DNA from: an uncultured bacterium
Lineage (GTDB): Bacteria > Verrucomicrobiota > Kiritimatiellia > RFP12 > UBA3636
Assembly (NCBI GenBank): GCA_902761575.1
Contig: CACWKU010000002.1
Coordinates: 5,578 to 69,577 of the forward strand
DNA: 64,000 nucleotides
Reading direction: 5' to 3'
In this document: piece by piece, positions 33,826 to 54,008 of the stretch
How positions within the stretch are numbered: the first letter of the stretch is position 1
Layout of the letters: every line of letters begins with the position of its first letter
The notes under the pieces: generated by a model
The model's input: the letters and a program-made list of their open reading frames with translations, nothing else
What the model was told of the DNA's origin: nothing
Databases searched by the model: none
Translations under genes and position numbers: made by a program

Positions 33826-36800
33826 CTACTCGTCGATCGTGCCGATGCCGACGGCGAAGAGATGCGGGTAGGGCTGGTCCAGGACGGCCGTGAGGATGCC
33901 GAGGGTGTCGAGCGATCCGTTGGTCAGGGTCGCGGGGAGGCGGAAGGCCGTGGCGTCGTCCAGGTTCTCCTTGCAGAGGAGCGCGACGACGACCTCGCCG
34001 CGGGCGTCGACCTTGCCGGCCCGGAAGCCGACCGTGAGCGTGTCGCCCGAAAGATCGATCGACGTGAACTCGACGTAGGTGTGGCCCTCGTAGTCGTCCA
34101 GCGCCTGGATGCCGCCGCCGTTCGGGCCCGGGATGTCCCAGGGGCGGGGCTGCGCGTCGGGGTCGAACTCGTAGCAGCCGATCGACGGCGTGTCCCAGAC
34201 GAAGTACTTGTCGTCGAGGTCCTTGCCGATGTACGCGTAGGTCGAGCCCGCCTCCTTCGCCGGAGAGCCCTCCAGTAGATGGTAGTCGCCGCTGGCGGCG
34301 TCGACGAACAGGGGGTCGCCGTAGAGGGAGTCCGGCGCCTGGTCCGCCTCCGACGCGAGCCCGAAGAAGCAGTTCCGGGAATTGACCGCGTCCTTCAGGA
34401 CGTCCGTGATCGAGTAGTTCGACTCGTTCGAGTTCATTTTGTTCCCGACCGCGATGGTGTTGATGATCGTGGCCTTCCCCGGGGTGAAGCCGGCCATGTG
34501 CTCGAAGCGGATTCCGCCCGCGTACAGGGTGCCCGTGTTGCCCGAGACCGTGCAGTTCCGGACGACGCACTCGTGGTTCGCCCCGCGGACGCCGATGCCG
34601 CCGCCGGACCCGTTGCCCACGATGCGGTTGTCGACGACGAGGCACGCGTCGACGAGCACGGGGCCCTCCGTGTCGACGGCCCCGATGCCGGCGCCGTAGA
34701 CGTTCTGGACCTGGGCCGAACGGTTCTCCGCGACGAGGCAGTGGTCGATCGTGCCCTGTCCGCCGGAGAAGGAGACGCCGCAGCCGTACATGTAGTGCGT
34801 GCTGCCGACGTTGTTGCTGATGCAGCACCACGAGATCGTACCGTTCCGAACCCACGCGCCGGCGCCGCCGAAGGTCTGCGTGCTGCCGCCGTTGATCCAC
34901 ACGCCGGTGTCGCCGGACTGCGCGTTCGCGTTGCCGCCCGTCAGGGTGAGTTTCGCGACCGTCGCGCCCTCGTCGACCATCGCCAGGCGGATGGCGGAGC
35001 CTGCGGCCGCACGGATGACCGTGTTCTCCCAGCCCTGGCCGACGAGCGTGACGCCGCCCGTCACATTGAGCTGCGCGTCGATGTAGAAGACGCCGTCGCC
35101 GAGCGTGACGGTGCCGGCGGGCGACTTGGCGGTACCGGCGGCCGCGGCGTCGATGAGGGCCTGGATCGTCCGCCGGTCCGTTTCTCCGGTCGCGTCCCCG
35201 CTGGGCGCGACCGGCTCAGTAGGGTCCGATCCCGTCTTGGGGAGCCTCACGGTCTTCGTCGCCGTCCCGGCGAACGGCGCGTTCGCGAACGTCGCGGTGT
35301 AGAGCCCCTCGCCGGCTTCGGTCTCGGTCGGCTCCCGGACGACCTCGTAGGCGGCCGTCACGGTCTCGTTCGTCACGTGCGAGGAGTCCGCCGTGCAGAC
35401 GGCGGTCGCCGTGCAGTCGTAGCCGGACGCCGTCATCGTCCACGCGTACGCCGGCGCGCCCCAGGTGTGGGCGTGGGGCGGGGGCGGCTCTCCGCCGCCG
35501 GCCTCGTAGCAGCCGATGGACGGCGGCACGGCGAAGGCCCTGCCGTCGAGGTCGACGCCCGCGCCGGAGCCGGCCGCGCCCGCCCCCTTCGCCGGGGAGT
35601 CTTCCTTCAGGCGGTAGTCGCCGTTCGCGGCGTCGGCGAATCCGGGGTCCCCGGAGAGGAAGCCCGCGAGATCGTGGTTCACGCCGCCGATGTTCACCGT
35701 CGTCTCGCTCGCGAGCCCGACGAAGCAGTTCTTCGAGCCCGTCGCGTCGAAGAACGAGTTGTTGGACCGCAGGTTGGATTCCGATTCGCCCAGCTTGTTC
35801 CCGACAAGGATGGTGTTGACGAGCACGAGCTTCCCGGGGCCGGTCGCCGACGCGAGGTCGAGGCCACCGGAGTTGGAGACCGCCTCGTTGCCGACGATCG
35901 TGCAGTTGCGGACGGTGCAGTCGCCTTCGAGGTTCTTCACGCACAGGCCGCCGCCCGATCCGCCGCCGGTCGTGATGGCGTTGCCCGCGACGAGGCACGC
36001 GTCGATCGTCACGGCGCCCTTCGTGTCGTTGACGGCGATGCCCGCGCCGAAGCCGCCCTGGAGGCCGCTCGCCGATGCGTTGTTGGCGACGATGGAGTGG
36101 TCGATCGAGCCCTGTCCGCCGGCGAAGGAGACGCCGTAGCCAGAGTTGGCGTGGTTCTTGCTGACGTTGTTGGTGACGCAGCACCAGGAGACGGTGCCGT
36201 CCTTGACCAGTACGCCGGCGCCGTTCTCGGACTGGGCCTTGATGGCGCCGCCCGTCAGGGCCACGCCCTCGATCTTCGCTCCGCCGTCCAGCATCGCGCA
36301 GCGCTGGGCGGTCCAGGAAGACTCGTTCACCACGCGCTTGACGACGGTGTTCGTCCAGCCCTGGCCGGCGAGCGTGACGCCGTTCGTGACATTGAGCTGC
36401 GCGTTGACGTAGAACGTGCCGGCGGAGAGCGTGACGGTGCCCGCGGGGCTCTTGGCGGCCGCGGCGTCGATCAGGTCCTGGATCATCTTCGCGTCGGTGA
36501 TGCCGGACTGGTCGCCGCTGGGCTGCCCGTTGACGATCTCGGGACCGACCGCGGCGGCGGCGAAATCGTCCACGTAGTCCCAGACGATGTCGTTGTAGTT
36601 GTAGCTGCCCGTTCCCGGCGACGCGTTCTGCTGGAAGGTGTGGCCGCGCGTGGCGAGCGTATGGAGCTCGCTCTCGAGCCCCATCGCGTGCAGCTTCTCC
36701 CAGCACTTGACCGAGTTCATGGCCGCATAGCTGTCGGCATCGCCGTGCAGGAAGAACATCTTGCAGGTCTTCGCATCGAACGCGAAGTCGTCGACCAGGA

Positions 36801-38231
36801 CGTCCGTGTCGAGATTGCCGCCGTTCGCGTTCGTGCCATCGGCTCCGTCGGTGAGCGCGTAGGCGGGATAGAACGCGATCGCCCACTTGACGTTGCAGGG
36901 CTGGTCGTCGATGTCGTCGATCCGCGCGTACGCCGGCGTGAGCGAGGTCGTCGCGCCCATCAGCGTCAGGTGGCCGGCCGCCGAACCGCCCATGATGCCG
37001 ATGCTGTCCGGATCGAGCCCGCGGCTCGGCGCCTCCGCGCGGACGAGGCGGATGGCGCGCTGGAGGTCCTGCCACGCCGACATGTGCTTGGCGAGGTTCG
37101 CGGGGCGGGGCGTGCGGTACTTGAGCGCGACGACAGCCATGCCCTTCTCGTTGAGGTAGCGACGCGTGGGGACGACCTCGAAGCCGTCGTGGTTGTTGAA
37201 GCCGTAGGCGCCGCCCGCGTAGATGATCTGGATCGCCCGCGTCTTGAGCTCCTTCGGGAGGTGCCATTCGATAAAGGGAACGACCTGGTCCGCGCTGAAG
37301 TCGGGCGTCTGGCCGTCGGGCCAGATGTTCTCCTTGATGTAGGTCGCGCGGTCCTCGTCGGACGCCCAGCGGTCGAACGCGGCCACCTCCGCACCGAGCG
37401 CGCCGAGAAATCCCATCTGGCACATGAACTCGATGGCGCGCCCGAACTCGGAAGCGGTCGCAGGGGCGTGTCCGCGTCCGGGGACGAGGTGGATTTCGGA
37501 GGGAACCTTCGCCCCGTTCGAAACCGTCATCGTACGGAGCTTCCGGTAGATGCGCGTCATCGCGATGGGAGACGTTACATCGTCGTCCTGGCCGTGGAAG
37601 AGGCACATGGTGCAGGTCTTGTTGTCGAACGCGAAGACCGTGTCGATCGCCGTGTCGCTCGTGAGCACGCGCGTCGGGGACATCGGGATCGCGAAGTTGA
37701 CGTTGCAGGCGAGGTCGTCGACGTCGTCGACCTTCGCGTACGCGGCGGTCTGCGAGCTGGTCGCGAGGAGGAGCGCGAGGTGCGCGCCGTCCGCGAAGCC
37801 CATGACGCCGATCTTGTCCGCGCTGTAGCCGCGCTCCGCGGCGGCCTGGCGCACGAGGCGCACGGCGCGCTGGGCGTCCTCCAGGGCCGGCTTGTAGACG
37901 GGAAGACCGGCCGCGCTCGGACGATGGCGGAGCCACACGCACGCGACGCCGTTCGCGAGGAGCTTCGCCTCGAGCGGTTGCAGCGCGGCGCCGTCGCCGA
38001 CGCTGGCGTAGTCGGAACCGGGGAGGATGATCACGCACGCGCCCGTGGGGGCGGCGGGCGCGTCGGACCATTCGAGGTACGGCGCCGCGACGCCGGCCTG
38101 CGCGTCGGGCATCCCGCCCTCCGGCCAGAGGGTCTGCGTGGTGCTTGCGGCGCCGGCGAGCGGCAGCAGGGCCGCGAGGGCGGCGATGAATCCGGCGAGG
38201 ATGATTTTCCTCCGATGGATGGTGTTCGACA
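33826..38231 (-). CDS. Secreted protein with two tandem alpha/beta-hydrolase (esterase-like) domains followed by two tandem right-handed beta-helix domains. Tail ..HLFAVGIGTIDE
   Basis: ATG start MSNTIHRRKIILAGFIAALAALLPLAGAAS (revcomp 38229-38231). Two homologous blocks with ..VIILPGSDYAS..WLRHRP..GVMGFADGAHLAL.. and ..IIYAGGAYGF..ALKYRTPRP..GIMGGSAAGHLTL... Two blocks with ..TLSAGTFYVNAQLNVTNGVTLAGQGWTNTV.. and ..TLGDGVFYIDAQLNVTGGVTLVGQGWENTV..; PPSIGCYE twice. Confidence 0.8.
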
Positions 38232-38429
38232 TGGCGTTTTTCTCCTGGTGCGTCGCCGTCGGGCGCATTCCCTCGGCGACGGCGACCATACTAGCACGCG
38301 CCGTCTTCCGTCCGAAACTACACAACCGTGTAGCACCCGTTTTCCGGCCCGCGAAGCGCCCCCGGAAGCGAGGCTCCGCCGCCCCTCGCGGCATCCGTGC
38401 GCGTGGCGGGGTGAGACACTCCTCCACGA

Positions 38430-38456
38430 AAAATGTCGCCTGCCAGGCGACATTTT
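38430..38456. repeat. 27-bp perfect palindrome AAAATGTCGCCTG-C-CAGGCGACATTTT in the divergent intergenic region, ~92 nt upstream of the RhuM ATG
   Basis: Both 13-nt arms are exact reverse complements; A/T-rich ends. Confidence 0.8.
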
Positions 38457-38547
38457 CCCCGGGGCGTTGTGGCAGTCTATCCCCCGTTCCGCGGGAACAT
38501 CCCGCGATACATCCCCAAACCACCCCCCAAGCAGAAAGGATTCCCCA

Positions 38548-39030
38548 ATGCCAGAGCCCAATGGTTGTGAACCGGAAGAAGTCTCGCCGCCGCAAAAGAA
38601 CGAGATCGTCGTCTACCAGCCGGACGAAACGCTCCGGCTTGACGTTCGTCTCGAAAACGAGACGGTCTGGCTGACGCAGAGCCAGATGGGAACGTTGTTC
38701 GGATGCACCACGAGAAACGTGCGCCTCCACCTGGAAAACATCTACGCATGCGGCGAGTTGACGCCCGAGGCAACTAGGAAGGATTTCTTCCTGGTTCGCC
38801 AGGAAGGCGTCCGGCAAGTCCGAAGGATGGTGACGTGCTACAACCTCGACGCCATCATTTCCGTCGGCTACCGCGTGAATTCCGTGCTTGGAGTCCGGTT
38901 CCGCCAGTGGGCGACGACCGTTCTGAAGGAATACCTGATCGGCGCCTCCCTCAAGGACCTCGGCAAGAAGTGCTTCGGCTTCACAAAAATGGATCCCGCG
39001 GAAATCCCGGGCCTGAAGGCGCGGCTCTGA
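38548..39030 (+). CDS. RhuM-family protein (virulence RhuM family, commonly in mobile/defense islands)
   Basis: 160 aa; RBS AAAGGA then ATG 38548. ..ETVWLTQSQMGTLFGCTTRNVRLHLENIYACGEL..VRRMVTCYNLDAIISVGYRVNSVLGVRFRQWATTVLKEYLI closely follows the conserved RhuM core (..ETVWLSQ..M..LF..HYNLDAIISVGYRV.S..G.QFRQWAT.VLKEY). Confidence 0.8.
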   Translation: MPEPNGCEPEEVSPPQKNEIVVYQPDETLRLDVRLENETVWLTQSQMGTLFGCTTRNVRLHLENIYACGELTPEATRKDFFLVRQEGVRQVRRMVTCYNLDAIISVGYRVNSVLGVRFRQWATTVLKEYLIGASLKDLGKKCFGFTKMDPAEIPGLKARL

Positions 39031-39080
39031 CGCCCCTCGCCGGGCATTCGCCGTTTTGCATCTTCCGATCCCGGCCGCCG

Positions 39081-39149
39081 GGCGACTTGCCGACTTGCCG
39101 ACCCGTCGACTTGGTCCAAGTCGTCAAGTTGACTGGTTGCCAAGTCGCC
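39081..39149. repeat. Array of CGACTTG(C/G) / CAAGTCG motifs: tandem direct repeat, 17-bp palindrome, 11-bp palindrome and outer inverted repeat
   Basis: cgacttgc at 39083-39090 and 39091-39098; cgacttgg-t-ccaagtcg at 39107-39123; gtcaa-g-ttgac at 39123-39133; ggcgacttgcc at 39081-39091 versus gccaagtcgcc at 39139-39149. Confidence 0.7.
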
Positions 39150-39742: not shown

Positions 39743-42700
39743 ATGGACGGACAAATGCTCAAACTGCGCTCGCTGGCCTTCTTTATCCTGAAGAAGCGCC
39801 GGGCAGACCCGTCCCTTGACAAGGCCACCTTTCTTGCGCCCGCCGACTACCACGACTATCTTCGCGATGCCGAACCCGCCGTCCAGGGATCGGCCGACGG
39901 CTTCGAGGACGCCGTCGGCGCGCGGCCACTTTCCCTGGACGAAATCGACCTGTCGCAAATCCAATACGGCGACGTGGTCGCCCAGATGTTCGATCAGGGC
40001 ATCTCGTACACGGCGGTTTCCCTCGTGGCGCCGGCACCCGCCGCCGCAGACTCCGCGGTATCGGTGAACTACTTCGAGAACTATGTCGCTTCGCTCGGCG
40101 GCGGCGCGGACCAGACGCGCCGCGACGTGGAGGCGACGATGGAGCGGATGAACGAAATCCTCTCCCGTCCGGAGAACGTCGCCCACCGCGTGAACGGACT
40201 CGTCGTGGGGCGGGTCCAGTCCGGCAAGACGCGCAACTACGTGGGCCTGATGCTCAAGGCGGCCGCCGAGGGATGGAATGTGATGATCGTCCTCACGAGC
40301 GCCAACACGCAGCTCGCCGACCAGACCGAAAGCCGGATCAAGGCCGACTTCGAGCGCGCCCGGGCGGACGCCCACATCCGCCTCGAGCTGCGTTCCGGTT
40401 CCCCCGACCGTCCCGCGCAGGTCCGCGCCGGCGCCGGGTCCTTCTACTGGGGCGTCGCGATGAAGGAGACGACGAACCTCCGCCGGATTCTCGACTGGCT
40501 CCACGACAACAAGGACCTCGTGCCGTTCATACACCTTCTCGTCGTCGACGACGAGGCGGACAACGCCACGCCCGACTCAGGCATGAACCGCCCGGGTTCG
40601 GCCCGGCGCCTCGCCGAAGGCGAACTCGAGGAACTCGGCGACGCGGCCGCGGACTCTCCCGACTTCCAGTCCGCCTCGCTGTGGATGCGGGAGGTCCAGG
40701 CGAAGTTCCAGAGCGTCCAGGACGACGTCGCGGCCGGCCGCGACACGCCCGACACCCGCAAGACGGCCGATCTCGTTTCCCTGCTCGAAATCTCGACGAC
40801 GTCGGTGGGCGACGTGCTCGGAAGGTACCGGTCGTTCCTCGGGCTCGATTCCGCCGACGTCGAGCAGAACGTCAAGAACTTCTTCATCGGCCCGGACGCC
40901 GCCGCGATGCACCGGAACGACTGCTTCGTCCGATTCCTCAACACGGTTCTGCAGATCGCCCAGGCGAGAAGCGCCACCAACCGCCGCATCTGCGAACTCG
41001 TCGGCCTCGCGTCCTCCGGCGAATCGATCTACGACTTCGCCCGTTGCGCCTACCTGGCCTATACCGCGACGCCCTACGCCAACATCCTCAACGAGCGCCC
41101 CGGACAGTCGCCGCTCTACGCCGACTTCATCCAGTCGCTCGCCGTCTCCCCGCGCTATTTCGGCCTGGACCGCATCTTCGGGACCGACCGGAACCGCCCC
41201 GAGCCCGCGATGCGGATCGTCCGGGAAATCCCGCAGGAGGACAAGCGCTACGTCCTCCAGCCCGTCCAGGGAATCAAGGACGACGGGCGCAGCCCGCGCG
41301 CCGTCCTCAAGGTCGGCATCGGCAACGACCTCAAGGTCGAGTGCAAATCCCCGCCCTACACCGGCTGGTGGAACTCGATGCGGGAGGCGGTGGCCTGGGC
41401 CTTCTGCGCGGCGGCCGCCCGTCGGCTCCACCGTCTTTCGGATTCCGCGGGAGGAAGCGGCCCGTCCCTGACGCTCGAGGACCGCTGGACGACGATGCTC
41501 GTCAACGTCTCCCAGCTCCGCAGGGCGCACAGGTTCCTCCGCGAGAAGATCGCCGCCTACGTCTCGTTCCGTTGTTCCGGGGCTTCCGCCGCGGACGACT
41601 TCGTCGCCGAGTGCCGGCGCGTCTGGGACGCCTTCCGCGCCGAGTTCCCGAAAGCGGACTTCGACCGCCTTTTCAATTCCGGCGCTCCCGGCGACTCCGG
41701 GGGCTACGGCTCCGTCGCGGACTATCCCGCATGGGACGAGCTCGCCCCCCACGTCCGCTTCTTCGTCGAGCGCCGCCGCGACACGGAGAACGTCCACGTC
41801 ATCGAACTCAACGCGTCGGGCCGCGCCGCGAAGGAGGCGCAGGACCGCTACAACCAGGTCGCCGGCTTCGCGGGGACGCTCCTCGAAGACCACCTCTGGA
41901 TCGTCTGCGGCGGCAACGCCATCTCCCGTGGGCTCACGCTCCACGGCCTCTGCGCCAGCTATTTCGACCGCGTCCGCAAGACCGTCGCCGTGGACACGAT
42001 GACGCAGATGGGGCGCTGGTTCGGCTACCGCGCCGGCTACGAGCTCCTGCCCCGCATCTGGATGCTCCCGGCGACGGTCGGGGAGATGAAGAACACCGCC
42101 GTCGTCGAAAGCCACATGCACGAGAGCATCGCGCAGAACTTCGCCGAGGGCAATTCCCCGTCCGACCCCGACCACTACCAGGCGATCTACAGCTGGGGCC
42201 GCCGGCTTTCCGGACGCGACGCCGCCCAGGTGAACGTCACCCGCAGCCTCGGCACGTTCGCCACCACGACCGACCTCCCCGCCGGCCGCGACGACATCGC
42301 GGGCGTCGCGAGCGCCACGGAGGCCTTCATCGCCAGTCTTGGCGCCCAGGCCCCCCGTCCCGAGTCCGAGTTCCCCCTGTTCCGCCAGTTCCCGCTCTGG
42401 AGCGGCATCGAAAGCCGGTTCGTCTCCGAGCTGCTGGCCCGCATCCGCGCATTCTACCCCGAGCGCTCTCGAAGGACCCTGGACACGCTCTTCCGGAAAA
42501 TCCAGGAGGCGGGCGCCTCGAGGACCTGGTACTTCGTCCTCGGCCAGCGCTTCGTGGGAGCGGGGCGGCAATACCGCTTCCGCACCTACAACGGGGAAAC
42601 GCTGGAAATCAAGGCCGGCTATTCCGAGAAGCCCCACGTGGTCGACGGCGCCGTCCGCGGCGTCAACGTCCGCAACTACCTTTCGTTCTTCGCGATGGTC

Positions 42701-47134: not shown

Positions 47135-49900
47135 ATGAAACCTTGGAAGCAAGTGGTCAAGCCCCACCGCGACGTGCTGGAGGGGGCCTTCACGCAGAGC
47201 GACTTCGCCGTGGACCTGATGAAGGTCGTGAACGGCGAGGCGCCGGCCGAATACCAGGACGCGCGGCTCTTCTTCGAGCGCACGTTCGTCACGCAGGGCA
47301 TCGCGGAACTGCTCGCGGCCGTGGCGGGGCGTCTCGCCGGCTCCGGCGGCCATCCCGTGATCGAGCTCAAGACGAACTTCGGCGGCGGCAAGTCGCACAC
47401 GCTGCTGGCGATCTGGCACCTGGCGAAGAACGCGGCGGACGCGCAGTCGCTGCCCGGCGTTGCGGAGGTCCTCGACAAGGCCGGAATCGGCGAAGTGCCG
47501 GAGGCGCGCGTCGCCGCAGTCGACGGCAACTACCGCGGGCCGGCCGAGCCGCGGCGCGAAGGAGGGCGAGTCGTCCGGACGCTCTGGGGCGACCTCGCGT
47601 TCCGGCTGCTGGGAGGCGCGGGCTACGACCTCGTGGCGGAAAGCGACGCGGCCGGGACGGCGCCGGGCAAGGAGAAGCTCGAAGCGCTTCTGCGCAAGGC
47701 CGCGCCGTGCGTGATCCTCCTCGACGAGCTCGTCGCCTACTACCGGCAGCTGGACAGGCCGGACCTGCCCGGCGGCTCCTACGACGCCAACCTCTCGTTC
47801 GCGCAGCAGCTCACCGAGGCGGTATCGAACACGCCCGGCGCCGTGATGCTCGCCACGCTCCCGCAGTCCGAGGGCGAAGCCGGCGGGGAATGGGGGAGCA
47901 AGGCGTTGCGCGAGGTGGGCAACGTCGTCCACCGGCTCGCCGCCACGTGGCATCCCGTCTCGCGCGACGAAAGCTTCGAGATCGTCCGCCGGCGCCTGTT
48001 CGAGCCGGTCGCGGACGAAGCCGCGATGCGCGAAACGTGCGAGGCGTACCGGGCGTTCTGCCACGAGAACCGGGCGGCGCTGCCGCGCGAGGCGCAGGAG
48101 GCGGCGTTCGTCGAGGCGTTCCCGAAATGCTATCCGATCCATCCCGAGGTTCTGTACCGCCTCTACGAGGACTGGGCGACCCTGCCCGACTTCCAGAAGA
48201 CGCGCGGCGCGCTGAAGTTCCTGGCGCTCGTCGTGCACCGGCTCTGGAAGGACCCCGGCTGCGACGAACCGCTGGTGATGCCGGGTTCGCTGCCGCTCGA
48301 CGCGTCCCCGGTCGCCAGCCAGGTCGCGCAGTGGCTCGTTAGCGGGAACTGGGGCCCGATCCTTTCCGCCGAGGTGGACGGCCCCGGCTCCGCGCCGGTC
48401 CGGCTCGACGCGGCCGACCCGCAGCTGGGCCGGCTGAAGGCGGCGCGGCGCGTGGCGAGGACGGTCTTCCTTGGGAGCGCGCCCTCCGTGTCCGGGCAGG
48501 CCGTCCGCGGACCCGACACGGCGCACGTACTGCTGGGCTGCGCGCGCCCCGGCGAGGAGCTATCCTTCTACCGCGACGCGCTCGACAAGATGGCGGACAC
48601 GTTCCGGTACCTCTTCCGCGACGGGGACCGCTACTGGTTCGACGTGCGCCCGAACCTCAACCGGACCGTCCACGAAAAGGCCGAGCGCGTTTCCGCGCGG
48701 GCCGTCGAGGAGGAGATCCGGTCGGCCTTCGACGCGAAATGGGGCGCCGGGCAGGCGCCGTGCGTCAACCACGCCCACGTCTTCGAGCCGGGGGCGAGGG
48801 TTCCGGACGACATCGTGTCGGGCCTGCGCGTCGTCGTCCTGCCGGCGGATTCGCCCTATTCGCCCCGGGCGGAGAAACCCGCCTTCGAGGCGGCGCGCGC
48901 GATCCTCGAATACCGCGGCGCGGCGGCGCGGACCTACAGGAACCGCCTCGTCTTCCTCGCGCCGGACTTCGATAAACTCGCCCGCGCCACCCAGCTCTGC
49001 CGGATGGTCGTCGCCTGGAGGGAGGCGGCCGAAGACATCGCCGCCAAGCGCATCGACGCCACCGTCGGCGAACAGGAGAACGCCGGCCGCCAGGCGCGGG
49101 TCCTCCGCGAATCCCTCGAACAGCTCGTGGGCGAAACCTTCTGCCATCTGCTCGTTCCGTCGATCGGGCCGAAGGGGCCGTCCGGCCCGTGCTCGTTCGA
49201 ACGGTTCGAAGTGCGCACGGCGCCCGTCGAACGGCTCTCGGAAACCGTCTCCCGCGCGCTCGTCTCGAACGAGATCGTCGTCGGGAACTGGGCCGCGCGC
49301 TTTCTCGGCGACCATCTTGGCGAAACCTATTTCGGTAACGCGGACGAAGTGTCCGTCCGCAAGGTCTGGGACGACATGGCGCGCTATCTCGACTACCGGC
49401 GCCTCGCCGACTTGGACGTGCTGCGCACCGCCGTCGAGAACGGCGTGCGCGACGGACTCTTCGGCTACGCTTCGGGAAAGAACGCGGACGGAAGCTACGA
49501 AGGATTCAAGTTCAAGGAACCGGTGATGGCGGGAGTCGGAGACCGGGATATCTTGATCAAGGCATCGAAGGCCGAGAAGGTTCAACCACCTCCGCCCCCG
49601 CCGCCTCCCGGTGGAGGCAAAGGACCGAAGCCACCGCCGCCGCCACCACCACCTCCTCCTCCTCCCAAGCCCGCTGGCAAGCGGAACTTCGCGGGCTCGG
49701 TGTCGCTGGACATTTCCGGCGACCTCTCTTCGTTCGACGAAATCCGGGACGACGTCCTCGCCCTCCTTGCCGGTCGTGGCCTGAACGCGAGCGTCCGCCT
49801 GGACATCCGCGCCGAAAGCGGCGAACCCTTCCCGCCCGACCTCCTCCGCGCCCTCAAGACCAACAGCCGCCTCCTGGACGAATCCTCACTCTCCTAACCT
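47135..49900 (+). CDS. DUF499-family ATPase (BrxC/PglY-like P-loop NTPase) with C-terminal poly-proline linker
   Basis: ATG 47135, 4 nt after the DUF1156 stop. MKPWKQVVKPHRDVLEGAFTQSDFAVDLMKVVNG.. is a typical DUF499 N-terminus. Walker A ..KTNFGGGKSHTLLAIWHL.., Walker B ..CVILLDELVAY... Pro-rich PPPPPPPGGGKGPKPPPPPPPPPPPPKP at roughly nt 49584-49668. Confidence 0.8.
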
Positions 49901-49925
49901 ACGGAGAGCGGACCGCACCCGCGAC

Positions 49926-49949
49926 GCGCTCGCCTTTCGGCGAGTGCGC
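49926..49949. terminator. GC-rich hairpin between the convergent DUF499 gene (+) and the 49979-50284 gene (-). Candidate bidirectional terminator
   Basis: gcgctcgcc-tttc-ggcgag(t)gcgc imperfect stem-loop, 26 nt after the DUF499 stop. No clear U-tract. Confidence 0.35.
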
Positions 49950-49978
49950 CGCAGACGCGAGGAATGGAAACCGATCCG

Positions 49979-50284
49979 TTAGGAACCCGGTTCCGGCCCG
50001 TCGGTCCACTCCAGCTCCGGCTCCAGTTCCCAGAACGTCTTGCCGTCGATGAGCGGCTCGGAGAGGAACGCCTTCATGGCTTCTTCGGACGTTTCCTTTT
50101 CCGTTTTCCAGACGAAAGTCCGGGCCGTCATGTCGTAGACGTCCATAAAGAAGAATTGCGGTTTTCCGTCTTCTCCCGGTTTGAACGTGCAGCCGTGGAC
50201 GAAATAGTCTTTGCCTTGGTACCGGACAAAGCCTTCGCCGTGTTCCATTTCTTCGAGGAAATCCCGAGTGTCAGCGTTTTTCAT
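49979..50284 (-). CDS. Hypothetical small protein (101 aa), lower-GC island
   Basis: MKNADTRDFLEEMEHGEGFVRYQGKDYFVHG..; ATG revcomp 50282-50284. Its first 14 nt overlap the end of the upstream gene (ATGAAAAACGCTGA). Confidence 0.5.
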   Translation of the reverse strand: MKNADTRDFLEEMEHGEGFVRYQGKDYFVHGCTFKPGEDGKPQFFFMDVYDMTARTFVWKTEKETSEEAMKAFLSEPLIDGKTFWELEPELEWTDGPEPGS

Positions 50285-50648
50285 GGAATTCGACTCCTTT
50301 CAGGTGTTGTTCGTATTCTTCGTAGAGTTTCTTCGGTCCCCATTGGGCTTCGCCTCTGTTTCCATCCGAAGTCCACTTGTGGTAGTGGAAGACTGGTTCA
50401 TAGCCGACCGACAGAGCGGGCTCGAACGTGTAGTCCAGATCGAAAAGCGGACGCCCGGTTGCTTTGTCGTAGATCCGCATTTGGCGAAACGTTCCGTCGG
50501 GACCGAACCGGATTCTGGCCTTTCCGTCCCGGGAAAAGAACGGGAGGTTGTGCTGTCCTCTCGTTCCTTCCACCACGACGACCTCCCCGATCTTTCCGAC
50601 GCCGAGGTAGTCCGAACTGCCGCGGGCACTGGAACTATTGCCTCCCAT
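50271..50648 (-). CDS. Hypothetical protein (~125 aa), lower-GC island
   Basis: Probable start MGGNSSSARGSSDYLGVGKIGEVVVVEG.. (ATG revcomp 50646-50648), overlapping the end of the DUF4417-like gene. The ORF-track 190-aa version has an Arg/Ser-rich N-terminal extension that looks non-coding. Confidence 0.45.
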   Translation of the reverse strand: MGGNSSSARGSSDYLGVGKIGEVVVVEGTRGQHNLPFFSRDGKARIRFGPDGTFRQMRIYDKATGRPLFDLDYTFEPALSVGYEPVFHYHKWTSDGNRGEAQWGPKKLYEEYEQHLKGVEFHEKR

Positions 50649-51270
50649 CGCCGACCTCCCTTCCGAAATAGTCGTAGGGCACGTAGATGATGGGGCCGCG
50701 CATTTCGGGAAACGGTTTCCCGAGACAGATGATCGCGCTCGGATCGAGCCGTTCCAGCATGGCGTCGTAGCCGTAGAGGTAGCCGGGCTTGTCGCGCCGA
50801 TTCCCGTTCGTCGTGACGGCGACCGGGGCGTTCTGTTCCACACCCAGGAAGCAGTAGCGAAGACTCCACCGCGAACCCCATCCGACGGACGGGATCACGT
50901 GAAGGCCCTTGCTCTGCCACCAGGCGCCGCACCAACGGTTCATGCCGATCGCCTCGATCATCTGCCACTCGCGCATCTCGCGGTAGCGCGAGAAGTCGGG
51001 GCTGAGAAGGAACCGGTACAGGGAGTAGGTCCCTAGGTTCGCCTCCACGTTGTTGCGGAACTTCCGGAAGCGCGTGTCGTCCACGAAGAAGTGGACGCCC
51101 TTCCGATAGTTCTCCGGCTTGTCCCGTCGACTCGTCCGCGAACAGGCCACGAGTCCGATGTCGCCATCGGGCAACGGCTCCCTGCGGATGATGTCGAACT
51201 GGAACTCCCCCACGCAGGGGAATTGGTCCCGAACGAAGTTCGGGTCTTCTCGCATTTGTTTGCTTGTCAT
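50635..51270 (-). CDS. DUF4417-like protein (tentative)
   Basis: 211 aa; ..VHFFVDDTRFRKF..YSLYRFLLSPDFS..WCGAWWQSKGLHVIPSVGW..; lower GC than the surrounding genome. The domain assignment is from memory and not verified. Confidence 0.4.
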   Translation of the reverse strand: MTSKQMREDPNFVRDQFPCVGEFQFDIIRREPLPDGDIGLVACSRTSRRDKPENYRKGVHFFVDDTRFRKFRNNVEANLGTYSLYRFLLSPDFSRYREMREWQMIEAIGMNRWCGAWWQSKGLHVIPSVGWGSRWSLRYCFLGVEQNAPVAVTTNGNRRDKPGYLYGYDAMLERLDPSAIICLGKPFPEMRGPIIYVPYDYFGREVGDGRQ

Positions 51271-51429
51271 TTCGGACTTTGTTGTTTGTATTCATGTGGA
51301 GGGGTCCATGAAGGTTGACTTTTGGGTCCGAAATGTGAGAGTATTGAGCGCGGTCCACTCTTGAATGTCCCACATTCCGGAGTCCCCCCCGCCGCCGGTT
51401 CCGCTGCAACGGTTCCGGCGGCACTTTTT

Positions 51430-51963
51430 TCATTGCGCACCCCTTTCGATCTTGCCCAGCTGGATGCGGGCGACCTCAAGGGACACGCCAAACTCTTCCT
51501 TGATGCGTTTGTCGGTCATTCCTGCGACCAGACGGCAGGGGGCCAGTAGTTCGGCGGCGAACTCGTTCGCCTGCCACTCCGGATCCTCGAAAGGGCGAAG
51601 CGAGGCTTTCCTGTTGCGACGGGCGTAGGCCACATAACTGTCTGGCACTTCGTCGGCGAGAAGCAGATGCCCGATCTCGTGCGCGATGGTGAACCGAGCG
51701 CGGGGATCGTCGGCAACTGCGGCTTCGTAGGTTGATTGTCGGATTTCAATGCGGTTCTCCTCGGGGATGGCCTGTGCATATTTGCCGGGAAGGTCTTCGT
51801 CCTCGACTACATCATAGACAAACCCCTTGATGATGCGAGGCATAGTCTGTTCAAGGAAGTCCACGACGTGAAAGTATCGTTCGGTGTCTAAACCGACCAG
51901 TCGACGAACATGACGAGCGATGAATCGGATTTCCTTGCGTGAAGTTGGGTTGTAGATGATCAT
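51430..51963 (-). CDS. ImmA/IrrE-family metallopeptidase (DUF955, HEXXH)
   Basis: Start MIIYNPTSRKEIRFIARHV.. (ATG revcomp 51961-51963); ..FTIAHEIGHLLLADEV.. HExxH zinc motif; ..ANEFAAELLAP... The start overlaps the stop of the upstream XRE gene (ATGA). Confidence 0.75.
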   Translation of the reverse strand: MIIYNPTSRKEIRFIARHVRRLVGLDTERYFHVVDFLEQTMPRIIKGFVYDVVEDEDLPGKYAQAIPEENRIEIRQSTYEAAVADDPRARFTIAHEIGHLLLADEVPDSYVAYARRNRKASLRPFEDPEWQANEFAAELLAPCRLVAGMTDKRIKEEFGVSLEVARIQLGKIERGAQ

Positions 51964-52331
51964 TTTTCTAGCTCCTTCAAAAAAGCGGAGATGAGGTTCG
52001 CATCGACCGCGTTGCCCTCCTGTATCTTGCGTGCGAATGCCACCACTGCTCGCCTGGAATCTGCGGAGAAGTTCGTAAGGTCCAAACGGACGCTGGTCGA
52101 GCTCTCGGCGATTGCGTTGGACAGTTCGGTTCGTTGCGCGGCATCGAGGTGGTAGTCGTCGGACAGTGTTTGCTCCCATCCTTCCGGCACGTGCTTGCGT
52201 CCCATCTCGACGGCGGAGAGGAACGCGGATGAAACGCTGAGTTTGTCGGCCATCGTCTTGAGTAGTTCGTTTCTATCGATTCTGAGTTTTCGCAAGAACC
52301 TTCCTAGCGGTGAAAGGGTTCGGGCGTTCAT
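51960..52331 (-). CDS. XRE-family helix-turn-helix transcriptional regulator, partner of the ImmA/IrrE peptidase
   Basis: Start MNARTLSPLGRFLRKLRIDRNELLKTMADKLSVSSAFLSAVEMGRK.. (ATG revcomp 52329-52331). Classic HTH_XRE N-terminal region. Translationally coupled to the ImmA gene. Confidence 0.75.
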   Translation of the reverse strand: MNARTLSPLGRFLRKLRIDRNELLKTMADKLSVSSAFLSAVEMGRKHVPEGWEQTLSDDYHLDAAQRTELSNAIAESSTSVRLDLTNFSADSRRAVVAFARKIQEGNAVDANLISAFLKELEK

Positions 52332-53006
52332 GGTTGGGTTCTCCTTCGGTGTTTCGCTTGGGTGGGCGAGGGGGCGCTTTGCTTTCTTTTGCTGTTTTGC
52401 TCTCAACGAGGGCGTAGACTAGCAGAAACACCCCTGCTTGTCAACCAGAAAAAGTTAAATTTTAAACCTATGCAGAACAATCGATTCTCAGCTAGGGATC
52501 AATCGGAGGACAGCCCCTTCAAGGTTCTCAAATGACCGCGACGCGGCGATACAACGTCGAATCGGCGCGCGGCCGGGGCAAGCATTCGTGGTTGACTTAT
52601 CCGTGTGAACAACGGCGGGAACACTGGCGGGCGGGGATCGGCCTGCATCGTCGAGCTCTTCGGGAGCGACGCGAACGGGCGGAAGATGATCGCGTGGGGG
52701 CGGCGGATCGGGTGCCGGGACGCAGGGCGCGGGTTCGAGCCCGGGCGCGGAGTCTACACACGGCTTCTGGTCGACGACGGCGACGTCCAGCAGCACAACT
52801 TCCTGATGGAGCTCGTCGACAACCCCGCCGGCCTCCGGGCGATCAATCCGGCGGAATGACCCCGCCACGCGTCGCGCGAAGCGCGGCGGCCAACGCCCTC
52901 CGTGGCGGGGTGCGGACCCCGCCACGCCTTCACATTTCCGGCGCGTGGCAACCGCCGTCGAGCGGAAGAAACTACCGGACGGGATGCGGATCGGGACGGG
53001 CGCGGA

Positions 53007-53741
53007 TCACTTCACGACCTCCCAATGACCGCCCTTGTCGGGACCGACGCGGCGGATGACGCCGGAGGCCTTCAGTCGGCTCAAATTCTTCTCTACGCCC
53101 CGAACGGAAAGTCCTGTCACGACCGCCAATTCGTTTTGTGTGGCGTGTGGATTCTCCGCCAAGTGGCGGATGATTTTCTCTGTACTTTTCTCCGCACTTT
53201 TCTCCACACCTTTCTCCACACCGGCAAGGGTGTTGGCGTCGAGACCGTAGTTGAGGTTCGGGAGTACCATGGTGAAACCCATCGCGCCGGAACTGAAGGT
53301 CGGCTTTAGAACGCGACCGCGCTTTTCGGATTCGAAGGCGTAGGCGTCGATGATTTTCCCGAAACCGCTTCCGCGGCGCTCCATCAGGTCCAGGCGTTGG
53401 AAAAGGTCGGCAATGACGGGGTTGCGACGCAGGGATGACACACGGCGCAAATCGGCGTTTTCGGCCGTCCTGCCGCTTGGCATGGCGCCCGGAGAAAAGA
53501 ACTCCATCCGGTCGTCGAAGATGTCGACGTGCAGTTCCCCGCCGAGTTCGAGGTAATCCCGGTGGATGAGACCATTGACGATGCATTCTTCGTAGGCGCG
53601 TTCGGGATACTCGGGGTATTCGATCCGCCGGTCGGGCGCCTTGCGCCACATCATCTTCGTGTTCGCGACGACGAACCTCTTCGCGGCCTTGAGAAGCGAG
53701 ATGAGCCCGCCGGAATACTCGTGGTCGTCGATGGCCTCCAT
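53007..53741 (-). pseudogene. 5'-truncated gene for a RecG-like/AlbA_2 family protein. Only the HATPase_c_4 and C-terminal winged-HTH part remains
   Basis: MEAIDDHEYSGG..YPEYPERAYEECIVNGLIHRDYLELGGELHVDIFDDRMEFFSPGAMP..RGSGFGKIIDAY.. then C-terminal HTH ..HATQNELAVVTGLSVRGVEKNLSRLKASGVIRRVG. The expected N-terminal AlbA_2 domain is absent; upstream frames give Arg-rich junk. Confidence 0.45.
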
Positions 53742-54008
53742 CACGCCGTTCGCTTTCGTGAGGCCCCGCCACCGGGTGCAGAACACGCGCGAATGCCGTC
53801 TTCCAGTTTCACGGGATTCCTGTGTTCCGGCCGGCGGACAGCTCCGCATTGCCGTTGACGGCTCCGATGATAGCACACCGCCTTCGCCGGGACAACCAGT
53901 CGCGCGAGAGCGCGGGAACCGAGGCGGGCGCTGCGCAAATCAGGATACCGGACGGGGACGGCTGTCGAGGAATCCGATCAGGGCGGCGGGGGCGGCTTGC
54001 CCGGGCAA

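Follow-up and report, generated by a model that had tools for sequence, protein, structure and literature searches.

A Four-Gene Cassette from a Kiritimatiellia Genome with a Predicted HmaB/HmaC Pair and a Predicted Motor and Nuclease Related to MzaC/MzaD

Results and Discussion

A 64,000-nucleotide (nt) stretch of contig CACWKU010000002.1 (here called the window), from an uncultured member of the Kiritimatiellia, carries four closely packed genes on the + strand (g1 to g4) that specify a predicted DNA motor, a nuclease, a DNA methyltransferase and an AAA+ ATPase. The cassette recombines two known kits in an undescribed way, rather than being a system of an entirely new kind. Judged from sequence profiles, the back half of the operon (g3 and g4) is a predicted HmaB/HmaC pair, while the front half (g1 and g2) is a predicted divergent relative of the MzaC/MzaD pair. 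Most likely (probability about 0.6), the cassette serves a gut or rumen bacterium as a defence, in which the cell's own DNA would be methylated and unmarked DNA would be cut by a motor and nuclease borrowed from another restriction system.

The first gene, g1 (nt 39743–43156), translates as an open reading frame (ORF) into 1137 amino acids (aa), and public gene calls place its start four codons downstream, at nt 39755, which gives 1133 aa. It is followed, after an 18 nt spacer with a Shine-Dalgarno-like GGAAAGGA, by g2 (nt 43175–44179, 334 aa, GTG start). The junction of g2 with g3 (nt 44176–47130, 984 aa, ATG start) is an ATGA overlap, seen both in the window and in the homologous locus L001, and g4 (nt 47135–49897, 920 aa) lies 4 nt beyond g3. 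The ORFs and junction sequences agree with an earlier note on this DNA, which had described four + strand genes with junctions of 18, −4 and 4 nt. That the four genes form one operon is supported by profiles, structure prediction and neighbourhood conservation. The GC content of the window is about 0.69 and spurious ORFs are abundant; mechanical ORF lists are misleading in such DNA, so that GC at third codon positions (GC3) and public gene calls are needed for sorting. The GC3 filter picks three of the four + strand genes within 39.5–49.9 kb. It misses g3 because of the low-GC core of that gene, the reality of which is backed by public gene calls and family matches.

The earlier note had proposed a survey of gene neighbourhoods, and this found the four-gene set, its order unchanged, at no fewer than 14 distinct loci, of which 10 are complete and 4 are cut off where the contig stops. 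Complete cassettes are present in the window (also L102–L104), L001/L002, L091, L003/L004/L012, L017, L094, L095, L096, L106 and L107, and L092, L093, L097 and L098 show the cassette as far as the contig extends. The loci have short intergenic gaps and different flanking genes, and the recurrence of the order among such flanks is more than chance; the four genes are inherited together. A search anchored on g2 found DUF1156 (the family of g3) adjoining DUF4420 (the family of g2) in eight of nine metagenome loci.

The three motifs that had been quoted for g1 are present in the protein (GRVQSGKT, residues 156–163; VVDDEAD, 267–273; QMGRWFGYR, 755–763), and 22 homologues share its Walker A, Walker B, motif III and motif VI without variation. 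The PADLOC profiles matched were MzaC (1.9e-30) and Helicase_II (4e-27), over residues 110–285. Against the NCBIfam MzaC model, g1 scored 128.7 bits for a cut-off of 1500, making it related but not an equivalog. The C-terminal region (residues 810–1137, nt 42170–43153, + strand) has a predicted fold like that of the C-terminal DNA-binding domain of H.CglI, the AlphaFold2 model having a predicted local distance difference test score (pLDDT) of 90.3 and a predicted template modelling score (pTM) of 0.86. Sequence searches of the PDB with g1–g4 and with a 22-sequence g1 profile returned nothing useful, and both this domain and the nuclease fold of g2 were revealed by structure comparison alone. 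No Pfam family matched the N-terminus, the insertion or the C-terminus of g1. The family consists of full-length homologues of 1100–1350 aa, and its few named sources are metagenome-assembled genomes of Kiritimatiellae. Most members other than g1 and its three closest relatives (1133–1147 aa) are 1260–1350 aa long and carry a C-terminal extension of about 170–200 aa that is missing from these four (an example with the extension is L003:10001–13915).

Gene g2 is predicted from sequence and structural modelling to specify a DUF4420 PD-(D/E)xK nuclease of the MzaD type. Its only Pfam match is DUF4420 ('putative PD-(D/E)XK', 1.3e-12), with no family matching its N-domain, and its PADLOC match is MzaD (1.3e-4). 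As with g1, the NCBIfam score (MzaD, 27.4 bits; cut-off 420) indicates a related protein and not an equivalog. The catalytic motif, encoded by nt 43706–43744, is D179-x8-E188-x-K190, which corrects the spacing of D-x10-ExK given previously, and H178, D179, E188 and K190 are invariant among 30 homologues. The AlphaFold2 model (pLDDT 86.5) has a PD-(D/E)xK fold by structure comparison. Proteins like g2 are rare: 1.84 billion representatives contain only 12 clusters of them at E ≤ 1e-30. The idea that g2 is a substitute for DUF3780 was rejected, DUF4420 being its sole Pfam family.

The product of g3 is a predicted HmaB-type DUF1156 N6-adenine DNA methyltransferase. It matches the PADLOC HmaB profile over its full length (1467 bits, residues 2–969), shares 57–63% identity with HmaB of canonical Hma loci, and in Pfam matches DUF1156 (5e-26) and MethyltransfD12 (2.6e-5). 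Motif I (DPFAGGG, at residue 138) and motif IV (DPPY, residues 585–588, as had been reported) are both kept in all 11 cassette homologues. The core of the gene (nt 44900–46500, residues ~240–775) has a GC content of 0.52–0.59 and a GC3 of 0.55–0.67, compared with about 0.9 at the ends. This low-GC core is also the part that diverges most from the closest homologues, and the coincidence suggests that g3 is a mosaic, in which the target-recognition and catalytic core was possibly exchanged with a lower-GC donor.

The last gene, g4, codes for a predicted HmaC-type DUF499 (BrxC-like) AAA+ ATPase. Residues 1–816 match the PADLOC HmaC profile (947 bits, 2.5e-285), and the Pfam match to DUF499 (1.5e-35), like that of g3 to DUF1156, is to the family first assigned. 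Identity to HmaC of canonical loci is 41–48%. Walker A (GGGKSHT, residues 83–89) and Walker B (ILLDEL, at residue 194) are kept in all six cassette homologues checked. Residues 818–846 (nt 49586–49672) form a long poly-proline/glycine linker, PPPPPPPPGGGKGPKPPPPPPPPPPPPKP, beyond which about 75 aa make up a small C-terminal domain. For the matching position, an analysis of BREX-related (BR) systems reports an RRM-like C-terminal domain that is hypervariable (PMC12839542). The C-termini of g3 and g4 had no Pfam match.

Hma systems, proposed by Payne et al. (PMC8565338), consist of the helicase HmaA, the methylase HmaB and the ATPase HmaC. Rakesh and Krishnan reclassified the loci as DUF499-centred BR systems of types 1–3, and describe every BR system as having a helicase of the Swi2/Snf2 type (PMC12839542). 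HmaA has a PD-(D/E)xK nickase C-terminal to its Snf2 helicase and protects against T4 on its own (PMC11232893); the earlier view that the methyltransferase/ATPase pair lacks experimental characterisation stands for HmaB and HmaC but not for Hma as a whole. The cassette shares with Hma/type 1 BR systems a full-length HmaB and HmaC, the order of methyltransferase then ATPase, a helicase and a PD-(D/E)xK nuclease encoded 5' of the methyltransferase, and a tolerance of embedded genes. It differs in having no HmaA (Swi2/Snf2 plus NOV_C), and a gene of its own, of the DUF4420 family, specifies the nuclease.

The genes of the 64-kb window encode no SNF2, Helicase_C or NOV_C protein, and tblastn searches with two HmaA proteins found none in the window, nor in any of the cassette loci, the matches being their own canonical loci. 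A location of HmaA elsewhere in the window was considered and rejected, as the large genes outside the island specify glycan-degrading or secreted proteins, regulators and histidine kinases. The closest HmaB proteins outside the cassette (61–63% identity) come from canonical Hma loci with a SNF2+NOV_C HmaA upstream, and a tree of HmaB places the cassette proteins apart from those linked to HmaA. Gene contexts predicted from this tree were correct in three cases out of three; one protein, P0202, was predicted to be canonical, and a Helicase_C+NOV_C HmaA with embedded genes was found at its locus (L108). We give about even odds that the Hma/BREX-related family has in this cassette a fourth subtype, as yet undescribed.

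Embedded defence genes are frequent in Hma loci (bioRxiv 10.1101/2024.01.29.577857) and are also found in homologous cassettes. In L094, a gene with Schlafen/AlbA_2, HATPase_c_4 and helix-turn-helix (HTH) domains (L094:5389–6876) is inserted between the DUF4420 (g2) and DUF1156 (g3) genes, and in L017 an AAA_14/DUF4143 ATPase gene (L017:17837–19189) is inserted between the DUF1156 (g3) and DUF499 (g4) genes. The Schlafen/AlbA_2-HATPase_c_4 and AAA_14/DUF4143 families are seen beside the cassette as well, in the window and L003. Such insertion of unrelated defence genes matches the habit of Hma and BREX (bioRxiv 10.1101/2024.01.29.577857). As Hma loci are hotspots that harbour or adjoin unrelated defence systems (bioRxiv 10.1101/2024.01.29.577857; PMC11232893), the cassette might itself be two modules, with g1 and g2 autonomous and able to defend without g3 and g4. 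This is unlikely given the ATGA overlap of g2 and g3 in both the window and L001, and the fact that HmaA is retained in no cassette locus. In all cassettes, HmaB and HmaC keep their catalytic motifs intact, which argues against a decaying remnant.

Type 2 BR systems consist of DUF1156, DUF499, DUF3780 and an HKD-Snf2 helicase (PMC12839542), and their methyltransferase and ATPase come from the same superfamilies as g3 and g4. The difference is that none of the four proteins has a Pfam match to DUF3780, and neither a stand-alone DUF3780 nor an HKD-Snf2 helicase was found. The earlier note had taken the DUF1156/DUF499 pair to be the one linked to DUF3780. The scores point instead to the Hma/type 1 BR pair: the NCBIfam 'anti-phage-associated' equivalogs are far under their cut-offs (DUF1156, 125 versus 1000 bits; DUF499, 179 versus 1200 bits), and the PADLOC DUF1156_MTase and DUF499 profiles score 91 and 124 bits, as against 1467 for HmaB and 947 for HmaC. 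Searches of the operon and its neighbours with Pfam and PADLOC found no PglZ, BrxA/B or Lon-like match, such as would place the cassette in BREX types 1–6 or type 3 BR.

The front half of the operon leads to Mza, a system that reportedly originates from Gao et al. 2020. The relatives of MzaC and MzaD (g1 and g2) are adjacent and in the same order as in that system, but both score far under the equivalog cut-offs and the methyltransferase of the cassette is of the DUF1156 family. Neither a GHKL/MutL-like ATPase (MzaB) nor an AIPR protein (MzaE) was found in g1–g4 or the island neighbours. Mza (mzaABCDE) is an anti-phage system of five genes, referred to as such a defence system in PMC11551731 and represented in PADLOC and NCBIfam.

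By analogy, the key mechanistic precedent for the cassette would be CglI, a restriction–modification (R-M) system. H.CglI is an ATP-driven double-stranded DNA translocase that requires a separate nuclease subunit and partners a methyltransferase (PMC5861437, PMC4267653). In enzymes of the CglI/NgoAVII type, an R2H2 complex couples cleavage to this ATP-dependent translocation. The cassette is similar to CglI, NgoAVII and BceSIV in that its nuclease is a separate gene and a methyltransferase is linked. It differs in the nuclease, which is PD-(D/E)xK (DUF4420) while theirs is PLD plus B3, in the methyltransferase (N6-adenine DUF1156 as opposed to C5-cytosine), and in the addition of a DUF499 ATPase; no PLD/B3 R subunit with a C5-cytosine methyltransferase was found. 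At 1137 aa, g1 is also nearly double the size of H.CglI (632 aa), and it has no detectable sequence similarity in the PDB.

In type III Mod/Res loci of the sister clade, the same position directly 5' of a methyltransferase-containing module is occupied, often with a nuclease gene between, but the back end is an N6_N4 Mod with a ResIII/TnsA-like Res and not DUF1156 with DUF499; DUF4420 is present in L099 only. Throughout the g1 family, the gene always lies ahead of one for a methyltransferase, and auxiliary or backup nucleases are commonly enlisted by BREX and by BR systems (PMC12839542). Both points favour an alternative in which g1 is an accessory and g2, g3 and g4 restrict without it. We judge this distinctly improbable, as the clade linked to HmaB/HmaC has no other helicase or primary effector.

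The cassette thus falls outside Hma, Mza, CglI-type R-M and BREX, a defining component of every one being absent, while combining parts of the first three; it is a case of effector swapping within known kinds of system. The four-gene combination is not described in the papers that define Hma and BR systems, in line with the earlier opinion that this is an island-like setting without a named system.

On the preferred reading of a methylation-based defence, and from what is known of the four families, g3 would methylate adenines within a specific motif of the host DNA, marking it as self. The BrxC-like ATPase g4 would assemble on DNA and aid the recognition of unmodified or foreign DNA; g1 would translocate along double-stranded DNA by ATP hydrolysis, as established biochemically for H.CglI; and g2, bound or activated by g1, would cleave the unmodified DNA. 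Several points weigh against this. Cassettes have a narrow range, mainly Kiritimatiellae and gut or rumen metagenomes, so inheritance as a block may partly reflect linkage and not function, and the trees are simple neighbour-joining reconstructions without support values. In Halomonas, overexpression of HmaB left the ability of T4 to overcome HmaA unchanged (PMC11232893). Finally, the defence role itself is inferred.

A role other than defence has also to be weighed, in which the methyltransferase and ATPases serve to regulate epigenetically, to repair DNA or to maintain a mobile element, an addiction module being one example. The cassette has no known phenotype, an arrangement like that of R-M could work chiefly as selfish addiction, and the island holds genes of the mobile-element type (RhuM, ImmA/IrrE with an HTH protein, and DUF4417). 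However, it is chiefly in anti-phage or restriction settings that the four families are known (PMC8565338, PMC12839542, PMC5861437), the distribution is patchy with variable flanks, and homologous cassettes have genes of the defence type inserted in them. IMG/VR viral contigs yielded no relative of g2, and the one match on PLSDB plasmids, to DUF4420, was weak and partial. Together these make such a role very improbable.

If the cassette is indeed a fourth subtype, a BrxC-like ATPase would control a translocation-and-cleavage machine of the CglI type, and the role of DUF499/BrxC could be tested in a simple four-gene system. The cassette keeps the DUF499/BrxC ATPase and the methyltransferase, with the effector swapped for a motor family with worked-out biochemistry (CglI). 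It therefore bears on how these two proteins turn 'unmodified DNA' into restriction in BREX, Hma and BR systems, and offers a four-gene model for asking whether HmaB/HmaC is an effector-independent sensing and modification module, how a signal reaches the effector, and whether effectors are exchangeable. The back-end partners to be compared are C5 methyltransferases (CglI, Mza), type III Mod/Res (sister clade) and HmaB/HmaC (cassette). Annotation tools that need HmaA or a complete Mza would miss the cassette or label it generically.

Upstream of g1 is a non-coding region of about 700 nt (nt 39031–39742, + strand) with no credible ORF by GC3, a putative promoter or regulatory region. It holds a single weak sigma-70-like match (nt 39406–39434), for which the chance expectation is 0.8, and the number of sites in the promoter and terminator scan was at chance level. 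The region matched no Rfam family, and no small upstream gene is conserved among the cassettes.

The cassette sits within an island of about 15 kb (about 38.5–53.9 kb) between carbohydrate-active genes, the flanks specifying large glycan-degrading or secreted proteins, an AraC-type regulator and histidine kinases. No tRNA or integrase was seen in the window, and the island has no Rfam family and no meaningful flanking direct or inverted repeats. The neighbours named in the earlier note (RhuM, an ImmA and HTH pair, a truncated AlbA_2-type gene and a lower-GC block) are all present. At the left, a RhuM remnant of 160 aa (nt 38548–39030, + strand) with an in-frame internal deletion matches residues 6–138 and 267–319 of a 319-aa RhuM in L001, which adjoins the homologous cassette there on the other side and on the opposite strand. 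A 1583-aa ORF on the + strand (nt 34279–39030) is spurious, being antisense to a real high-GC gene on the − strand (nt 33826–38817); the only real part is the RhuM remnant, formed by the final 160 codons. The lower-GC tail of the island (nt 49900–53900, with the low-GC block at 50–53.7 kb) includes a 101-aa ORF and, all on the − strand, genes for a DUF4417 protein (nt 50635–51270), an ImmA/IrrE M78 peptidase (nt 51430–52179), its HTH_31 partner (nt 51960–52406) and a HATPase_c_4 protein with a winged HTH that lacks the AlbA_2 N-terminal domain (nt 53007–53876). An identical island is present in several metagenome assemblies.

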